Shown: positions 20,383 through 43,160 of the stretch, piece by piece
Layout of the letters: each line of letters begins with the position of its first letter
Position numbering within the stretch: position 1 is the stretch's first letter
Virus record (IMG/VR): IMGVR_UViG_2534681759_000012
Coordinates: 1-43,160 of that record
From: a virus
Taxonomy: Duplodnaviria > Heunggongvirae > Uroviricota > Caudoviricetes
DNA length: 43,160 nucleotides
Direction: 5' to 3' (one strand)
Program-made: the position numbers and the translations under genes
The notes under the pieces: generated by a model
What the model was told of the DNA's origin: nothing
Seen by the model: only the letters and a program-made list of their open reading frames with translations
The model's database searches: none

Positions 20383-22329
<1,947 letters not shown>

Positions 22330-28847: not shown

Positions 28848-31328
28848 TCAGAATCCTCCTTTCTTCTTGGACTGCGGCTCCTCGCGTTCACGGCGGCGCA
28901 TTTCAGCAGACTGTTGGTCTGTGTCATAAATAGCGCCATTTGCCTGAATGCAATACACCGTGCCGGTATTGCCATGACGATTGAGACGAAGGATTAGTTC
29001 GGTTTCACCAGGTGGAACACTGTCATCAAAAGCACCTTCACGATGGATCCCCACCCAATAATCGCAATCCTGTTCAATCTGCCCTGTATCTCGTGAGTCA
29101 CTTGGTAATGGGCGTTTATTGGTTCGGCTTTCCAGTGCGCGGTTAAGCTGCGTCAGAAGCACAACAACGCAATCAAGCTCTTTGGCAAGGTTCTTCAGTC
29201 CTTTGGTGATCATGCCGTAAGCAAGGTCGTTGCGATCGGCCTTCTCAGCGGTCATTAGTGTCAGGTAATCGACCAGAATCATGCCAACACATCCTTTTTC
29301 TCGCTTGATTCGACGGCTTTCGCTGACGATTTGAGCCAGAGATAATCCCGGCGTGTCGTCGATGTAAAGCATGTCGATTTCACTCAAGCGATTGGCTGTT
29401 TCGATCGCCCTGTTGAAGTCACCATCGTAATCACCCTGATAGCCGTCATCGGCGTCATTTGTCGCCGGAAGGTAAAAAATATTCGGGTTAACACCAGACT
29501 TCTGCCCTACCAGTTTTTCCAGTATCTGGTCACCGGGCATTTCAAGGCTGAACATCAGAGCGGGCTTTTTCTCATGCACTGCGCAGTTGATTGCCATCTG
29601 GCTGTATAGCGTGGTGTTGTGGGTTAGAATGTATCCGTCAGTTGCATACAAATGTCTCTCGTGGGATACCATGATGCAAATGCACTCTTCACGTCCAATA
29701 TACTCAACCGACGTGATAACAGGCGCACTTGTTTTGATGCGTTTTGCAGTGAATTTTTGCTTCAGGCGTGGAGATTTTATGTGTGATAGAACCTCATCAG
29801 GCAACCTGATTGCGCAAATATGGGCATCCATACCTTTGCGCATTTCTCCCTTATAACTGAATTTCGGCTCCTGTTTGGTTGTCATACGACACACGCCACC
29901 AAGAGAATGCACCAGCCGCTTTACACCATCTGACAGGAACTTGCTTGCCGAGCTAAAGCGCAGGGCATTATTTCCTTCAACCCAACCATCGGTTTCAAGT
30001 AATCCGCATAGAACATCAATACGAGTTTGCTTATCAGCAGAAAAAATAATATCCGGGATAATTTTAATCTCTGACATCCGGCCGTAGATACCAAGCCGTT
30101 GCATAACCCGCGTAAGAGATAATTTGCGGCTAAACTTGTGAGATAGGGAGTAATCGCAGCCAGAAACATTTCTGACTTCAATATCGTCACCCACTTCAGA
30201 TCTTACTCGCTCAATGATGTATGGTTCCGTCATGCTGATTCGTGGCGTACCTGCAAGATTTCCATCGCCAAGTAACGCACCTAACAGCCATGGGCTAATC
30301 CCTAAATCAACAGGCAATCCGAAGTCACCGCTAATACCAGGAACATGAATGCGGCTTTGATAGCGAACGCATTCCATCATGTCCCGTAGGCGGCAGGTGT
30401 CTACAACATCAACGCCACCGGTAATACGGTTACTATGAATTTCCCACAAATGATCATCCGCGCAATCAACGGTTCTTCCGTCAGAGAACGTAACTCGGTA
30501 AATATCTCGCTCCCCTTGAGGAAAAACTCCAGACACGAATGATGGTTGTCCATCCACTGATGCTAGGGAATCTCCAACACATACGTCACGAAATGTTGTC
30601 CATGAACCATCAGCAAGCAAAATGCGTGAATTAAGCGGTTGCGCTTTCCCCATCTTAGGGCGAGCGCCAATGACAAACAGAGAGCCTTTCACCAGACCTT
30701 TCGGTGACAGCATCCTGTCCAGCGATGGGATCCCTGTGCTCATTCCTCGTTGTTCGCCTGACGGGTCAAATCGCTTCTCAAGGTCGCTAACCCAGTCTTC
30801 CATGACCTCACCAAATGAACGAAGGCCGCGACGCGATCCGGTTTTTGCATGGTCTGTCAGTTGCGTGAAAATCGACTGAATAGCTTCGTACTTCTGTGTT
30901 GCAGTCATTCCGTTGCGGGAATAGAGCAATTCCGTCGCTTCAGTCATGCGGTTGATGGCGTAGCGTTCCATTGCGGTTTCACGAACCTGCATTGCATAGG
31001 CAACGATGTTTGCTGCGCTTGGCGTGTTCTTTGCGATCTCAGCGATATAAGCAAAACCGCCAACAGACGCCGTTAACGATTTACGCTCCAGTTCATCGAA
31101 AAGCGTCAGGCCATCTACTGGCTTTTGCTCCCGGTGCATTCTGGTTATTTCTTCGAAAAGGATTTTGTGTGGTCGGCTGTAAAATGAGTCAGGCTTCAGC
31201 ATCGCCAGAACTTTCTGGACGCGCTCACTGCAGTCATCATCCAGAAGCAATCCACCAATCACCGCCTGCTCTGCCTCGATGCTATGGGGCGGCGCATAAA
31301 AATTATCGGTCATCGTGTTCACCCTCAC
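28848..31328 (-). CDS. Replicative DNA helicase (DnaB family) interrupted in-frame by an intein
   Basis: 826 aa; DnaB N-terminal domain (PHSIEAEQAVIGGLLLDD...), Walker A split as GARPKMGK / TTLYS by a 343-aa insertion, then DnaB motifs (LVDYLTLM, LLTQLNRALESR). Confidence 0.85.
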   Translation of the reverse strand: MRVNTMTDNFYAPPHSIEAEQAVIGGLLLDDDCSERVQKVLAMLKPDSFYSRPHKILFEEITRMHREQKPVDGLTLFDELERKSLTASVGGFAYIAEIAKNTPSAANIVAYAMQVRETAMERYAINRMTEATELLYSRNGMTATQKYEAIQSIFTQLTDHAKTGSRRGLRSFGEVMEDWVSDLEKRFDPSGEQRGMSTGIPSLDRMLSPKGLVKGSLFVIGARPKMGKAQPLNSRILLADGSWTTFRDVCVGDSLASVDGQPSFVSGVFPQGERDIYRVTFSDGRTVDCADDHLWEIHSNRITGGVDVVDTCRLRDMMECVRYQSRIHVPGISGDFGLPVDLGISPWLLGALLGDGNLAGTPRISMTEPYIIERVRSEVGDDIEVRNVSGCDYSLSHKFSRKLSLTRVMQRLGIYGRMSEIKIIPDIIFSADKQTRIDVLCGLLETDGWVEGNNALRFSSASKFLSDGVKRLVHSLGGVCRMTTKQEPKFSYKGEMRKGMDAHICAIRLPDEVLSHIKSPRLKQKFTAKRIKTSAPVITSVEYIGREECICIMVSHERHLYATDGYILTHNTTLYSQMAINCAVHEKKPALMFSLEMPGDQILEKLVGQKSGVNPNIFYLPATNDADDGYQGDYDGDFNRAIETANRLSEIDMLYIDDTPGLSLAQIVSESRRIKREKGCVGMILVDYLTLMTAEKADRNDLAYGMITKGLKNLAKELDCVVVLLTQLNRALESRTNKRPLPSDSRDTGQIEQDCDYWVGIHREGAFDDSVPPGETELILRLNRHGNTGTVYCIQANGAIYDTDQQSAEMRRREREEPQSKKKGGF
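29616..30644 (-). other. Intein with LAGLIDADG homing-endonuclease motifs inside the helicase P-loop
   Basis: Residues 229..571 of the helicase: starts with Ala (AQPLNSRILLADGSW...), ends ...YILTHN followed by Thr; two LAGLIDADG-like motifs (LGALLGDGNL and LCGLLETDGWVEG); removing it restores GARPKMGKTT. Confidence 0.75.
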
Positions 31329-32773: not shown

Positions 32774-33004
32774 TTAAGCGGCCATTAATTCAGGCCAGAT
32801 GCTTTCCCAATCAACCGGATGAAGGTCTTTGCGAGTCACTTCACCATTGCTGAACTTCTCAATCAGAACACAAAGTGCTGCGCCCAATTCATGATTACGG
32901 CTAAGTGCTTTCCTCAAATAGCCGATAGAAGTTCCGCACTTGGTGGCAAATTCTCTCTGCTCTTCCAGTGAAAGGGAGTTCAGATACAAGCGGAGTTCTT
33001 CCAT
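32774..33004 (-). CDS. cro: Cro-like repressor (HTH)
   Basis: 76-aa HTH protein transcribed divergently from cI across an operator region. Confidence 0.7.
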   Translation of the reverse strand: MEELRLYLNSLSLEEQREFATKCGTSIGYLRKALSRNHELGAALCVLIEKFSNGEVTRKDLHPVDWESIWPELMAA

Positions 33005-33038: not shown

Positions 33039-33094
33039 TTTACCTGTAGGTAAAAAGCAAATCAATACCCATAGGTTATTTACCGGCAGGTAAT
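33039..33094. promoter_or_regulatory. Right operator region OR (at least two TTACC-N4-GGTAA sites) with divergent pRM/pR
   Basis: Inverted-repeat sites TTTACCTGTAGGTAAA (33039..33054) and ATTTACCGGCAGGTAAT (33078..33094) between the cro and cI starts. Confidence 0.65.
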
Positions 33095-33112
33095 CAAAGA
33101 TAGAATTAAATC

Positions 33113-33799
33113 ATGGATAAATACGAACAAAGACGACTAAGGCTGATAGAGATAAGAGACCGATTCTGTAATGGAAAGGCCTCAGAGTTGGCTCGTCGAA
33201 TAGAAAGGGAACCATCATACGTTTCCAGAATGCTGTATCCGGAAGGAAAAAGCGGAAAAAAACGCATTGCTGACGATATGATGGAACTAATTGAAAAATC
33301 TTTTAATCTCCCACGCGGATGGATGGACATGCTTGCAGATGGTAAAGCTGGAGCTACGGACCATCTTGAGTTTGCGGGTAACGTTCGTGCGGGTTTTGTT
33401 CCGGTAATTGGTGAAGCCGTTTTGGGAGTTGATGGCTCAGTGGATATGATTGAATTCAGATCCGGTTGGTTAAGCATCTACAGCGGCGATAAAGATGCTT
33501 ACGGTCTGAAGGTTAAGGGTGACAGCATGTGGCCAAGGATTCAGTCAGGAGAATATGTTGTTATTGAACCAAATACGCCAGTACATCCAGGTGATGAAGT
33601 CTTTGTAAGGACCAAAGACGGTCACAACATGATAAAGATCATGAACAAAACAAGAGACGGTGATTATCAGTTTAGTAGCATAAACAGTGATCACCGCCCA
33701 ATCACTCTTCCTGTTGAAGAAGTTGATAAAATGCATTTTGTTTCAGCTATTGTGAAACACACCAGGTACGTAGACCAGGACGATCTGCCAAAAGTTTGA
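33113..33799 (+). CDS. cI: Prophage repressor CI (HTH plus LexA-like S24 autopeptidase domain)
   Basis: 228 aa; N-terminal HTH (ASELARRIEREPSYVSRML); C-terminal S24-type motifs (KVKGDSMWPRIQSGEYVVIE, KIMNK); not lambda immunity. Confidence 0.85.
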   Translation: MDKYEQRRLRLIEIRDRFCNGKASELARRIEREPSYVSRMLYPEGKSGKKRIADDMMELIEKSFNLPRGWMDMLADGKAGATDHLEFAGNVRAGFVPVIGEAVLGVDGSVDMIEFRSGWLSIYSGDKDAYGLKVKGDSMWPRIQSGEYVVIEPNTPVHPGDEVFVRTKDGHNMIKIMNKTRDGDYQFSSINSDHRPITLPVEEVDKMHFVSAIVKHTRYVDQDDLPKV

Positions 33800-34110
33800 G
33801 GATAAAGCAGCAAATGTTTATACCCGGCATAGTAGTCGCTGTTGTAATCATCTGCTTCATATGGGCAAAGTTATCTCCTGTAAGCTCTAAGCATACAGCT
33901 GAACTCATGAGGAAGAAGAATCTTATACATGAGGCAGAATCGATAATTAAAAAGTTCAAAGGCATGTCATACGACGACATGTCATCAGAGCAGATTGCTA
34001 TGTATAAATGCGCCATTGAGCGCCTTGACTACTTAAACGGACTCAAACCCAAACACACCCCAGTAGAATCAAAATTGCCGCAATGGCCAAGCAATCCAAA
34101 TAGCTTCTGA
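33796..34110 (+). CDS. Small single-pass membrane protein co-transcribed with cI (in the lambda rexAB position)
   Basis: 104 aa with one N-terminal TM helix (FIPGIVVAVVIICFIWAKL); start overlaps the cI stop; followed by a strong terminator before OL/pL. Confidence 0.6.
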   Translation: MRIKQQMFIPGIVVAVVIICFIWAKLSPVSSKHTAELMRKKNLIHEAESIIKKFKGMSYDDMSSEQIAMYKCAIERLDYLNGLKPKHTPVESKLPQWPSNPNSF

Positions 34111-34121
34111 CATCTCCTTTC

Positions 34122-34143
34122 AGCCCGCAAAGCGGGCTTTTTT
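34122..34143 (+). terminator. Rho-independent terminator ending the cI operon (tImm-like)
   Basis: AGCCCGC-AAA-GCGGGCT hairpin followed by TTTTT, 12 bp after the 104-aa ORF stop. Confidence 0.8.
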
Positions 34144-34206
34144 ATATCAATCCAAAAAATTAATTACCTGAAAATTCAAGCAGGTAAACTCTCACATCAA
34201 TTTTAT

Positions 34207-34248
34207 TTACCTGCAGGTATAGACAGGGGTTTTACCTGTAGGTATATT
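34207..34248 (+). promoter_or_regulatory. Left operator OL sites overlapping candidate pL
   Basis: Operator repeats TTACCTGCAGGTAT (34207..34220) and TTACCTGTAGGTAT (34232..34245), same half-sites as OR; candidate -35 TAGACA (34220..34225) and -10 TATATT (34243..34248) directed toward N. Confidence 0.55.
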
Positions 34249-34288
34249 TTAAGCCATCAGCAGGACGCACTGACCACCATGAAGGTGA

Positions 34289-34587: not shown

Positions 34588-34914
34588 ATGGATGCACAAA
34601 CACGCCGCCGCGAACGTCGCGCAGAGAAACAGGCTCAATGGAAAGCAGCAAATCCCCTGTTGGTTGGGGTAAGCGCAAAACCAGTTAACCGCCCTATTCT
34701 CTCGCTGAATCGCAAACCGAAATCACGAGTAGAAAGCGCACTGAATCCGATAGACCTTACGGTGCTGGCTGAATACCACGAACAGATTGAAAGCAACCTG
34801 CAACGTATTGAGCGCAAGAATCAGCGCACATGGTACAGCAAGCCACGCAGTGAAATGGGTGTGACTTGTGTTGGTCGCCAGAAAATGAAATTAGGCAGCA
34901 AACCACTTATTTGA
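34588..34914 (+). CDS. N: Antiterminator N (lambda-type)
   Basis: 108 aa beginning MDAQTRRRERRAEKQAQWKAANPLLVGVSAKPVNRPILSLNRKPKSRVESALNPIDLTVLAEYH, matching lambda N as recalled; C-terminus diverges slightly. Confidence 0.9.
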   Translation: MDAQTRRRERRAEKQAQWKAANPLLVGVSAKPVNRPILSLNRKPKSRVESALNPIDLTVLAEYHEQIESNLQRIERKNQRTWYSKPRSEMGVTCVGRQKMKLGSKPLI

Positions 34915-34992: not shown

Positions 34993-35193
34993 ATGACTAC
35001 TACTATTGATAAAAATCAATGGTGTGGACAATTCAAGCGATGCAATGGATGCAAGCTGCAATCGGAATGCATGGTTAAGCCTGAAGAAATGTTTCCTGTA
35101 ATGGAAGATGGGAAATATGTCGATAAATGGGCAATACGAACGACGGCAATGATTGCCAGAGAACTTGGTAAACAGAACAACAAGGCTGCCTGA
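34993..35193 (+). CDS. Hypothetical Cys-rich small protein (66 aa)
   Basis: ORF downstream of N with CxxxxxxCxxC...C pattern; no family recognised. Confidence 0.4.
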   Translation: MTTTIDKNQWCGQFKRCNGCKLQSECMVKPEEMFPVMEDGKYVDKWAIRTTAMIARELGKQNNKAA

Positions 35194-35251: not shown

Positions 35252-35701
35252 ATGGAAGAACAAGCAAACAAGATTCTCGTAGAACTACTGCAAAAAGCCA
35301 GTAATGGAATAGACGCGGCTGTTTCATTTAGCCAGGCACAGATTCCTGATGTTGTTCATCAGTTGCTGCTATGGAATATGGTTGACAGTCTGATTAAAAC
35401 ATTAATGGCCATTCTAACAATCCCACTGGTTTTCTGGTTTATGAAGAAGCAGTGCCAAAGAGTTGAGACAGGTAAAATCGGTGATGAAGGATATTCATGG
35501 GAGAAAGGAAATCCCAAATACAGGCCGACAATGGTTTGGGATAGCAAAGGTGATATTAATCTTCTTATCATGCCATTGGTTGGAGTTTTGACTCTGTGGG
35601 GGATTTTTATTATTGGTGTAGTAACCAATATGACTTGGTTAAAAATTTGGCTGGCCCCAAAGCTTTACCTTATCGAATATGCAGCATCATTGGTTAAGTA
35701 A
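35252..35701 (+). CDS. Two-helix membrane protein in the early-left operon (possible superinfection-exclusion SieB-like position)
   Basis: 149 aa with two hydrophobic segments (LIKTLMAILTIPLVFWF and LLIMPLVGVLTLWGIFIIGVV); lies a few genes downstream of N, where lambda and P22 carry sieB; function by position only. Confidence 0.4.
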   Translation: MEEQANKILVELLQKASNGIDAAVSFSQAQIPDVVHQLLLWNMVDSLIKTLMAILTIPLVFWFMKKQCQRVETGKIGDEGYSWEKGNPKYRPTMVWDSKGDINLLIMPLVGVLTLWGIFIIGVVTNMTWLKIWLAPKLYLIEYAASLVK

Positions 35702-41912: not shown

Positions 41913-43160
41913 CTATATTGCTGAAGGTACAGGCGTTTCCATAACTATTTGCTCGCGTTTTTTACTCAAGAAGAAAATGCCAAATAGCAACATCAGGCAG
42001 ACAATACCCGAAATTGCGAAGAAAACTGTCTGGTAGCCTGCGTGGTCAAAGAGTATCCCAGTCGGCGTTGAAAGCAGCACAATCCCAAGCGAACTGGCAA
42101 TTTGAAAACCAATCAGAAAGATCGTCGACGACAGGCGCTTATCAAAGTTTGCCACGCTGTATTTGAAGACGGATATGACACAAAGTGGAACCTCAATGGC
42201 ATGTAACAACTTCACTAATGAAATAATCCAGGGGTTAACGAACAGCGCGCAGGAAAGGATACGCAACGCCATAATCACAACTCCGATAAGTAATGCATTT
42301 TTTGGCCCTACCCGATTCACAAAGAAAGGAATAATCGCCATGCACAGCGCTTCGAGTACCACCTGGAATGAGTTGAGATAACCATACAGGCGCGTTCCTA
42401 CATCGTGTGATTCGAATAAACCTGCATAAAAGACAGGAAAAAGTTGTTGATCAAAAATGTTATAGAAAGACCACGTCCCCACAATAAATATGACGAAAAC
42501 CCAGAAGTTTCGATCCTTGAAAACTGCGATAAAATCCTCTTTTTTTACCCCTCCCGCATCTGCCGCTACGCACTGGTGATCCTTATCTTTAAAACGCATG
42601 TTGATCATCATAAATACAGCGCCAAATAGCGAGACCAACCAGAAGTTGATATGGGGACTGATACTAAAAAATATGCCGGCAAAGAACGCGCCAATAGCAT
42701 AGCCAAAAGATCCCCAGGCGCGCGCTGTTCCATATTCGAAATGAAAATTTCGCGCCATTTTTTCGGTGAAGCTATCAAGCAAACCGCATCCCGCCAGATA
42801 CCCCAAGCCAAAAAATAGCGCCCCCAGAATTAGACCTACAGAAAAATTGCTTTGCAGTAACGGTTCATAAACGTAAATCATAAACGGTCCGGTCAAGACC
42901 AGGATGAAACTCATACACCAGATGAGCGGTTTCTTCAGACCGAGTTTATCCTGAACGATGCCGTAGAACATCATAAATAGAATGCTGGTAAACTGGTTGA
43001 CCGAATAAAGTGTACCTAATTCCGTCCCTGTCAACCCTAGATGTCCTTTCAGCCAAATAGCGTATAACGACCACCACAGCGACCAGGAAATAAAAAAGAG
43101 AAATGAGTAACTGGATGCAAAACGATAGTACGCATTTCTGAATGGAATATTCAGTGCCAT
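41913..43160 (-). CDS. cscB: Host LacY-family (oligosaccharide:H+ symporter) permease, CscB-like sucrose permease
   Basis: 415-aa 12-TM MFS protein with LacY-like N-terminus (SVNQFTSILFMMFYGIVQDKLGLKKPLIW versus LacY ...[22 protein letters not shown]); ordinary GC; outside the prophage; start codon at the window end. Confidence 0.8.
   Translation of the reverse strand: MALNIPFRNAYYRFASSYSFLFFISWSLWWSLYAIWLKGHLGLTGTELGTLYSVNQFTSILFMMFYGIVQDKLGLKKPLIWCMSFILVLTGPFMIYVYEPLLQSNFSVGLILGALFFGLGYLAGCGLLDSFTEKMARNFHFEYGTARAWGSFGYAIGAFFAGIFFSISPHINFWLVSLFGAVFMMINMRFKDKDHQCVAADAGGVKKEDFIAVFKDRNFWVFVIFIVGTWSFYNIFDQQLFPVFYAGLFESHDVGTRLYGYLNSFQVVLEALCMAIIPFFVNRVGPKNALLIGVVIMALRILSCALFVNPWIISLVKLLHAIEVPLCVISVFKYSVANFDKRLSSTIFLIGFQIASSLGIVLLSTPTGILFDHAGYQTVFFAISGIVCLMLLFGIFFLSKKREQIVMETPVPSAI

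Follow-up and report, generated by a model that had tools for sequence, protein, structure and literature searches.

Introduction

In lambda, two genes located downstream of the repressor gene cI, rexA and rexB, encode the Rex system, i.e. a cytoplasmic protein and a membrane protein with four transmembrane (TM) segments. Rex, like BstA of BTP1, is an abortive-infection system that adjoins a prophage repressor. SieA of P22 is a proven inner-membrane protein that blocks the DNA injection of P22-like phages, and escape mutations are located in the C-terminal regions of gp16 and gp20 (PMC10883804). SieA proteins of 162–200 aa are divided into types A–C (Leavitt et al. 2024), with three TM segments in type A and four in types B and C (PMC10883804). 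A sieA gene was reported for 22 of 66 P22-like phages; the parts of that study available here describe no replacements elsewhere, report that P22 sieA is up-regulated upon induction, and leave the blocking mechanism of SieA open (PMC10883804). A comparable outcome is described for gp15 of HK97, which blocks genome entry in a manner that depends on the tail and ejection apparatus of the incoming phage (Cumby et al. 2012, via PMC3594210). Here we compare these systems with a 98-aa gene at positions 33814–34110 (+ strand) of the virus record IMGVR_UViG_2534681759_000012, of which the whole 43,160-nucleotide stretch is referred to as the window. The gene follows cI directly in a P22-like prophage of E. 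coli, and its distant relatives occupy the place of sieA in other P22-like prophages. Its product is best described as a putative new, non-homologous analogue of SieA and HK97 gp15, the small exclusion proteins by which prophages act at the inner membrane.

Results and discussion

A conserved gene between cI and its terminator

A sequence-only reading of the window had proposed a 104-aa protein overlapping the cI stop codon, following the program-listed open reading frame (ORF) at 33796–34110 (+) with its TTG start. Both the length and the overlap had to be revised. The N-termini of all homologues (20+) follow the pattern M/V-[FYW]-I-[PS], matching the ATG at 33814–33816, and the two genomes in which RefSeq annotates the gene (coding sequence WP_000470488.1) use the start equivalent to ATG 33814. 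As homologues and RefSeq share this start, the TTG at 33796 was rejected in favour of a 98-aa gene with its stop codon at 34108–34110. A Shine-Dalgarno sequence, GAGGA (33798–33802, +), overlaps the stop codon of cI and is located 11 nt before the ATG, which itself follows the cI stop by 14 nt. Among alleles, the start codon alternates between ATG and GTG. Over the ORF, the region matches phage mEp043 at 98.4% identity, and the match to E. coli MB19 is complete (100%). An antisense ORF at 33747–34016 (−) was rejected as coding because conservation tracks the + frame.

Comparison of the window gene with its closest relatives (loci L007 and L008) gave proportions of non-synonymous differences (pN) of 0.37–0.42 versus 0.71–0.86 for synonymous ones (pS). 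Ten near-identical alleles from E. coli and mEp043 segregate at 8 synonymous and 11 conservative non-synonymous sites (pN/pS 0.35), and all ten are intact, with no stop, no frameshift and no change at the invariant family positions. By these measures the gene is real and under purifying selection. The opposite view, that the stretch between cI and the terminator is a non-coding spacer and the ORF spurious, would fit the missing annotation in 50 of the 52 E. coli genomes carrying the gene (RefSeq PGAP) and the weakness of the TTG start first proposed. It is nevertheless exceedingly improbable and is already refuted by the comparative data: frame, start, length and 11–13 invariant residues are retained in homologues of 30–43% identity across two genomic contexts, pN is far below pS, and the frame matches PHROG 10450 over its full length (residues 7–104 of the 104-aa ORF against profile positions 1–98 of 98, E = 4.6e-54). 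As a separate observation, PGAP annotates the 98-aa gene in 2 of the 52 RefSeq E. coli chromosomes (e.g., NZ_CP073981.1, 583497–583793), which constitutes a systematic annotation gap for a conserved gene.

The + strand of 32.7–35.0 kb is a classical lambdoid immunity region, in which the earlier reading had assigned the gene to the rexAB position, followed by a strong terminator and then OL/PL. This arrangement is confirmed throughout. The gene is the second and last cistron between cI (33113–33799, +) and an intrinsic terminator, AGCCCGC-AAA-GCGGGCT followed by T6 (34122–34144, +). The 7-bp stem of the terminator (34122–34138) comprises six G-C pairs and precedes the T run; folding of the 96-nt region gave −19.6 kcal/mol (z = −4.4), and the terminator is unchanged in all ten alleles. 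Further downstream, a promoter scan identified a PL-like site, TAGACA-17-TATATT (34220–34248, +), which overlaps the OL operators TACCTGCAGGTA and TACCTGTAGGTA (34207–34248, +; sequence and promoter scan), and the antiterminator gene N, the first gene of the PL operon, lies beyond (34588–34914, +; N36 domain PF11438, E = 1.5e-26). The scan revealed no promoter-like site between cI and the target gene. Inside cI, the sole + strand site is weak (9 of 12 matches), and such sites are no more numerous than in shuffled sequence; an internal promoter driving the target gene is not supported. On these signals, the gene is the second and last cistron of the PRM–cI operon, and production together with the repressor is expected in every lysogen because of this position. 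Expression from PRE while lysogeny is being established would be expected as well.

The same arrangement bears on a role in the lytic cycle, where the protein might, for instance, keep released progeny from injecting the induced cell again, or act at the membrane on the timing of lysis. Such a role could be reconciled with the induction of P22 sieA (PMC10883804), whose slot the family shares, and with the small membrane-anchored protein, a property of many lysis regulators. However, the window gene lies behind cI, where the terminator seals it off from PL; it would be off during induction because PRM is shut down, and it is not near the lysis genes. We regard a lytic-cycle role as quite improbable.

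Relatives of the gene replace sieA in P22-like prophages

Clearer indications of function come from the second genomic context. A distant clade of the family, 33–37% identical to the window protein, was found in 28 fetched loci of P22-like prophages. In all 28 loci the gene is convergent with the ejection-protein gene 16, and in most of them it lies downstream of an Mnt-type repressor gene with arc and ant beyond. P22 has sieA at the corresponding position, and no SieA homologue was found in the 28 loci. Locus L005 and P22 are 98% identical along a 723-bp stretch that begins at mnt/orf59a and takes in the terminator, the annotated PsieA, the TAAGGAGG Shine-Dalgarno sequence and the GTG start of sieA; the identity stops one base past this start codon. 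The entire 120-nt upstream region (PsieA, Shine-Dalgarno sequence and GTG) is kept at 95–99% in 6 of the 28 loci, where the similarity likewise stops one base past the start codon, and the last 29–37 nt upstream are kept in eight more, so that 14 of 28 share the translation-initiation region of sieA. To judge from these junctions, the coding sequence of sieA has been exchanged precisely for a relative of the window gene, located behind PsieA or behind mnt. The position of the junction, exactly at the shared Shine-Dalgarno sequence and GTG (L005 4097–4220 against P22, L006 3951–3828, and 13 other loci), suggests that cassettes are exchanged with the translation-initiation region as a conserved linker. 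Of 5426 complete E. coli genomes, 62 contain a single allele type of this clade.

The slot accommodates further genes. Some P22-like prophages with the cI-linked gene keep immI, and their sieA slot holds other small envelope-type proteins, i.e. a 122-aa protein with a signal-like N-terminus and a lipoprotein-like gene with an internal stop (L045 5176–5544; L046 14612–15082). In PA45B, genes for ClpP-like and Panacea-domain proteins follow mnt. Judged by these occupants, the cargo held in the sieA slot is hypervariable. Among the long members of the family, P0008 (114 aa; L003 4001–4345) is the most divergent, and it is found in a rearranged P22-like prophage remnant next to a type VI secretion system hcp-tlde1 effector pair and arylsulfotransferase genes.

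The cI-linked gene as part of an immunity module

The target gene was detected in 52 of the 5426 complete E. coli genomes, always in the chromosome, and in all 52 a single block comprises cI, the gene and OL; among the matches listed for the query spanning cI, the gene and OL, all others covered the nutL/N end only. Similarity to other N-type prophages starts again at about 34242–34252, and the gene is assigned to the immunity module because similarity resumes only there. Five distinct loci have the gene directly after this type of cI. Three other prophages with the cI-linked gene are P22-like too and differ in chromosomal site and early genes. Three diverged proteins, P0006, P0007 and that of L009, come closest to the window protein (42–43% identity) and occupy the same place, 3–17 nt after a cI that is 84–85% identical to the window cI; the adjoining cro is 89–92% identical.

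The family as a whole is small, restricted to Enterobacteriaceae, and found in two genomic places. An exhaustive HMMER search of 1.84 billion representatives returned 11 matches only, including full-length relatives at 33–43% identity, and a profile search of 5.8 billion clusters returned 22 clusters with E. coli, E. fergusonii and Salmonella as named sources. When the cI-linked sub-alignment was compared with 185,579 species representatives, a single further genome was found, that of an Escherichia sp. By its distribution the family is an accessory gene of P22-like phages, placed in either of two operons, each expected to be active in lysogens.

Within the shared module the target gene diverges about five times faster than its neighbours, with a non-synonymous divergence (dN) of 0.5–0.6 compared to 0.07–0.10 for cI and cro. 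Rapid in-place evolution and allele replacement are inseparable here, because cII is as divergent as the target gene between the same loci.

These data also bear on the possibility that the protein is an accessory factor for lysogenic conversion or maintenance with no direct anti-phage role, acting, for example, as a membrane-tethered cytoplasmic adaptor on an inner-membrane protein of the host (a protease such as FtsH, a transporter or the divisome), or sequestering a regulator, e.g., an antirepressor. The outcome would be a tuned lysogen stability, induction or host fitness. Small phage proteins are known to act on host membrane proteins in this way, as illustrated by lambda CIII on FtsH and DicB on ManYZ. 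The gene is apparently co-transcribed with cI and, elsewhere, is found downstream of a second lysogeny repressor, Mnt; moreover, the predicted cytoplasmic domain is rich in conserved charged residues (H27, K34, E40, Q60, R70, K78 and H81). On the other hand, the family is restricted to P22-like prophages of Enterobacteriaceae and swaps with sieA rather than with regulatory genes, it evolves faster than the adjoining regulators, which is unexpected for the partner of a conserved host protein, and it is missing from most P22-like phages and therefore dispensable for lysogeny. An accessory role of this kind, including its proposed outcome, is a serious alternative that we still consider unlikely.

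Predicted topology, fold and comparison with known exclusion proteins

The earlier description of a single-pass membrane protein stands as a prediction. Residues 2–20 (FIPGIVVAVVIICFIWAKL; 33817–33873, +) form the only candidate TM segment, with a mean Kyte-Doolittle (KD) value of 2.53 compared to 0.05 for the next best window, and are part of a helix (residues 4–47) in the AlphaFold2 (AF2) model. All 13 family members examined, 97–114 aa in length, show one hydrophobic segment (second-best window KD ≤ 0.37), no charge ahead of it, and 1–6 K/R among the following 15 residues. In the target protein, the N-terminal flank is uncharged and four K/R are found within the next 15 residues; according to the positive-inside rule, this predicts an N-out/C-in orientation with about 78 residues in the cytoplasm.

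The AF2 model, based on a 14-sequence alignment, has a mean confidence (pLDDT) of 77.5 and consists of the long helix 4–47, comprising the TM segment and a cytoplasmic extension, a turn, a second helix (58–76), and an extended tail with W91-P92, the C-terminal invariant of the family. Alignments reveal 11–13 invariant positions: S24, H27, K34, I38, E40, A41, M56, Q60, C66, A67, L71, W91 and P92. Read from the secondary structure, the conserved small and hydrophobic residues I38/A41 and C66/A67/L71/L74 would lie on heptad-spaced stripes, consistent with packing of the two helices as a hairpin. As modelled, this helical hairpin is a fold too generic to inform on function.

The homology and structure searches that the sequence-only reading had called for were run, and its statement that the protein matches no recognised family remains valid. 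Scans of the window protein and diverged members against Pfam, NCBIfam and PADLOC revealed nothing above noise, including no match of the target protein to any of the 5027 PADLOC models. A profile search of Protein Data Bank (PDB) sequences hit only designed helical filaments (E ≥ 0.1), and no PDB or BFVD structure matched the AF2 model at E ≤ 0.001 in Foldseek. PHROG 10450 is thus the sole family label, and it carries no functional annotation. Literature searches on mEp043 and on alternatives to sieA identified no publication on the gene or its family.

The likeness to SieA is one of locus and setting. Both are small inner-membrane proteins (predicted for the family) encoded by P22-like prophages of Enterobacteriaceae, and the relatives share the promoter region, Shine-Dalgarno sequence, start codon and convergence with gene 16. 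In both proteins, the conserved portions are predicted to lie on the cytoplasmic side. In contrast, homology is undetectable: the hhalign probability was 0.8% for P22 SieA itself and 0.2% for a profile of nine SieA members, and PF26849, which SieA homologues do carry, was not matched in Pfam scans of the window protein and 14 members. SieA of P22 is described with 162–164 aa and three TM segments, compared to 97–114 aa and one TM segment in the family, and the conserved C-terminal SieA motif FxRYPxEAxxFNK is absent from the family alignments. Moreover, the sieA slot between genes 16 and 9, behind PsieA, is occupied by the relatives in 28 loci, whereas the window copy is located behind cI.

HK97 gp15 belongs to the mechanistic class proposed here and is, like the target protein (by prediction), a very small inner-membrane protein of a prophage. 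No homology to gp15/YebO was detected (hhalign probability 0.3%). The 62-aa gp15 is encoded by a stand-alone moron, which brings a promoter and a terminator of its own into a siphovirus tail operon. The target gene does not have the makeup of a moron: it is followed by a terminator but has no promoter of its own, and its GC content (0.40–0.42) is similar to that of cI (0.41–0.45). The relatives in the sieA slot do have a separate promoter region.

The third comparison, with lambda RexA/RexB, concerns the position after cI, transcription from PRM/PRE (as deduced for the window), a terminator before OL/PL, and a membrane component. Lambda Rex has two genes and four TM segments in RexB, whereas a single gene with one TM segment, and no RexA-like sensor, is present here. 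With no similarity to RexA or RexB and no match in Pfam or PADLOC, Rex homology was rejected; all tests for membership by homology likewise failed for SieA and HK97 gp15. An abortive-infection effector of a different make is still conceivable: the anchored protein would sense a cytoplasmic infection cue and depolarise or permeabilise the membrane, so that the lysogen dies before any progeny form, in a Rex-like manner with a single protein. The position after cI points in this direction, other prophages keep such genes next to the repressor, and a membrane anchor with a domain predicted to face the cytoplasm could serve as sensor. Against it stand the missing similarity to RexA/RexB or any PADLOC model, and a single TM helix that has no amphipathic pore-forming features and makes a weak channel candidate. 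Furthermore, the relatives replace sieA, an entry blocker and not an abortive-infection gene, and genes in the SieA slot are tolerated constitutively in lysogens. We consider abortive infection improbable.

Exclusion of P22-like phages as the proposed function

With respect to function, the confidence decreases from the general to the specific. That the gene encodes a membrane protein expressed in the lysogen is very probable, judging from the operon and the predicted anchor, and an anti-phage function is rather likely. The sequence-only reading had suggested an exclusion or abortive-infection factor; the notion of anti-phage cargo is strengthened by the sieA-slot replacements, while abortive infection is less favoured than exclusion at DNA entry. 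More specifically, the protein may exclude incoming P22-like phages at the inner-membrane step as a non-homologous analogue of SieA, a proposal that we prefer to its rivals and find plausible, if somewhat short of probable. The 98-aa protein would be anchored in the inner membrane via its N-terminal helix, with the helical-hairpin domain of about 78 residues directed toward the cytoplasm, and genome delivery by incoming phages would not be completed; the excluded phages would most likely be other P22-like ones as well as the phage itself. A possible target is the conduit formed by the ejection proteins gp7/gp20/gp16, or an inner-membrane host factor that this conduit requires.

Several observations favour this proposal. 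The family makes use of SieA expression signals in half of the sieA-slot loci and is confined to the same phage group, and the window phage is P22-like yet has no immI/sieA region. Furthermore, the fast divergence of the gene would be usual for proteins in phage–phage conflict. A wider and more tentative version, which we regard as possible rather than probable, is that the family represents an unrecognised exclusion cassette interchangeable with SieA, moved between the PRM–cI and mnt/PsieA operons, and blocking genome delivery at the inner membrane from its cytoplasmic side, in a manner unlike that of the three-TM SieA. The protein might cap or mis-assemble the gp16 channel, or titrate a host factor such as YajC.

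The following points weigh against exclusion as the function. Literature searches yielded neither an experiment nor a transcriptome on the gene or on other members of the family. Identity between the window protein and the sieA-slot clade is only 33–37%, so that the function of the two clades may differ, and position alone does not fix function because unrelated cargo is found in both slots elsewhere. Relaxed constraint or recombinational allele replacement, instead of an arms race, could account for the higher dN. The predicted location of the soluble domain is the cytoplasm, but the gp20/gp16 conduit lies in the periplasm and the membrane; the conserved motif of SieA is likewise predicted to be cytoplasmic (PMC10883804). 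Finally, the plain helical hairpin has no informative structural neighbour in PDB or BFVD.

Further features of the immunity region and the window phage

Upstream of the target gene, cro (32774–33004, −) is transcribed divergently from PR. The gap of 108 bp between cro and cI contains OR, read from the sequence as three TACC-N4-GGTA-type palindromes (33042–33053, 33067–33078 and 33081–33092), and the same motif is found again at OL as TACCTGNAGGTA palindromes at 34209–34220 and 34232–34243. A PRM-like promoter, TTTACC-16-TAGAAT (33079–33106, +; promoter scan and sequence), has its −10 element ending 6 nt before the ATG of cI, which suggests that the cI mRNA may be leaderless, as in lambda. The cI repressor (228 aa) is of the S24 autopeptidase type (Peptidase_S24, E = 1.4e-17) and 100% identical to that of mEp043. 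Among the ten alleles, five of six non-synonymous cI polymorphisms fall in residues 75–82 (window 33335–33358), the linker between the DNA-binding and S24 domains; elsewhere in cI, only synonymous changes and V228F were found. Between the operon terminator and OL, sequence inspection and folding identified a second hairpin, TTACCTG-N10-CAGGTAA (34164–34187, +), which may double as an operator. In L008 and L009, an equivalent 10-bp hairpin with a T run is the sole terminator-like element after the gene.

The window (1–43160) comprises a complete P22-like prophage, with the integrase gene at one end (1–1152, +) and a host gene for a lacY-type permease at the other (41913–43160, −). The phage as a whole is P22-like rather than lambda-like: Pfam identified the P22 coat, portal, gp10, gp7, gp20 and head-binding tailspike proteins, as well as a protein with an SLT domain in the gp16 slot, and the genes for tailspike, ejection proteins, coat and portal are all on the − strand. 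While the virion is of the P22 type, the N/nut early region is lambda-type and the immunity region is that of mEp043. Only 164 bp (4989–5152) separate the gp16-slot ejection-protein gene (5153–7546) from the tailspike gene (2949–4988), leaving no immI region (mnt/arc/ant) and no sieA slot. The gene-16-position protein (797 aa, − strand) carries the SLT lytic-transglycosylase domain at its N-terminus (E = 2e-25). This domain is absent from P22 gp16, and the JNE131328 prophage shares the SLT type of the window.

Additional genes were noted elsewhere in the prophage. An IS21-type element (20469–22270, +) is located between the terminase genes and the late/lysis region and contains istA (rve integrase core and helix-turn-helix) and istB. 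A strong PADLOC match of istB to ‘DrmD’ was rejected as evidence of DISARM, as it represents an IstB-ATPase look-alike. The DnaB-type replicative helicase (28848–31328, −; 826 aa) has about 450 residues splitting its N- and C-terminal DnaB domains, and this insert, with a weak LAGLIDADG match inside, is probably an intein. A 441-aa ORF (1567–2892, +) between integrase and tailspike, with no match in Pfam or PADLOC, is a candidate for another cargo gene at the prophage end. In the PL operon, just after ral (34993–35193), a 149-aa ORF (35252–35701, +) encodes several hydrophobic segments and has no family match; we take its location to be roughly the sieB position of P22 and lambda. An Rfam scan of the window gave no match.

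Conclusions

In summary, a conserved prophage gene that is mostly unannotated in RefSeq occurs in about 2% of the complete E. coli genomes (52 + 62 of 5426). It is found in the expression slot of sieA or behind cI, the latter also in phages lacking this slot. The sieA-slot copies provide an example of cassette exchange exactly at a common ribosome-binding site and start codon. The finding does not amount to a surprising new principle, but it is relevant to how podoviruses deliver their genomes: the DNA conduit of P22-like podoviruses across the inner membrane, and the way in which SieA blocks it, are still unresolved. An unrelated and much simpler protein in the same expression slot would offer an independent genetic handle on this problem. 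If the proposed exclusion function holds true, the protein would constitute a second, structurally simple probe for the passage of podovirus ejection proteins through the inner membrane.

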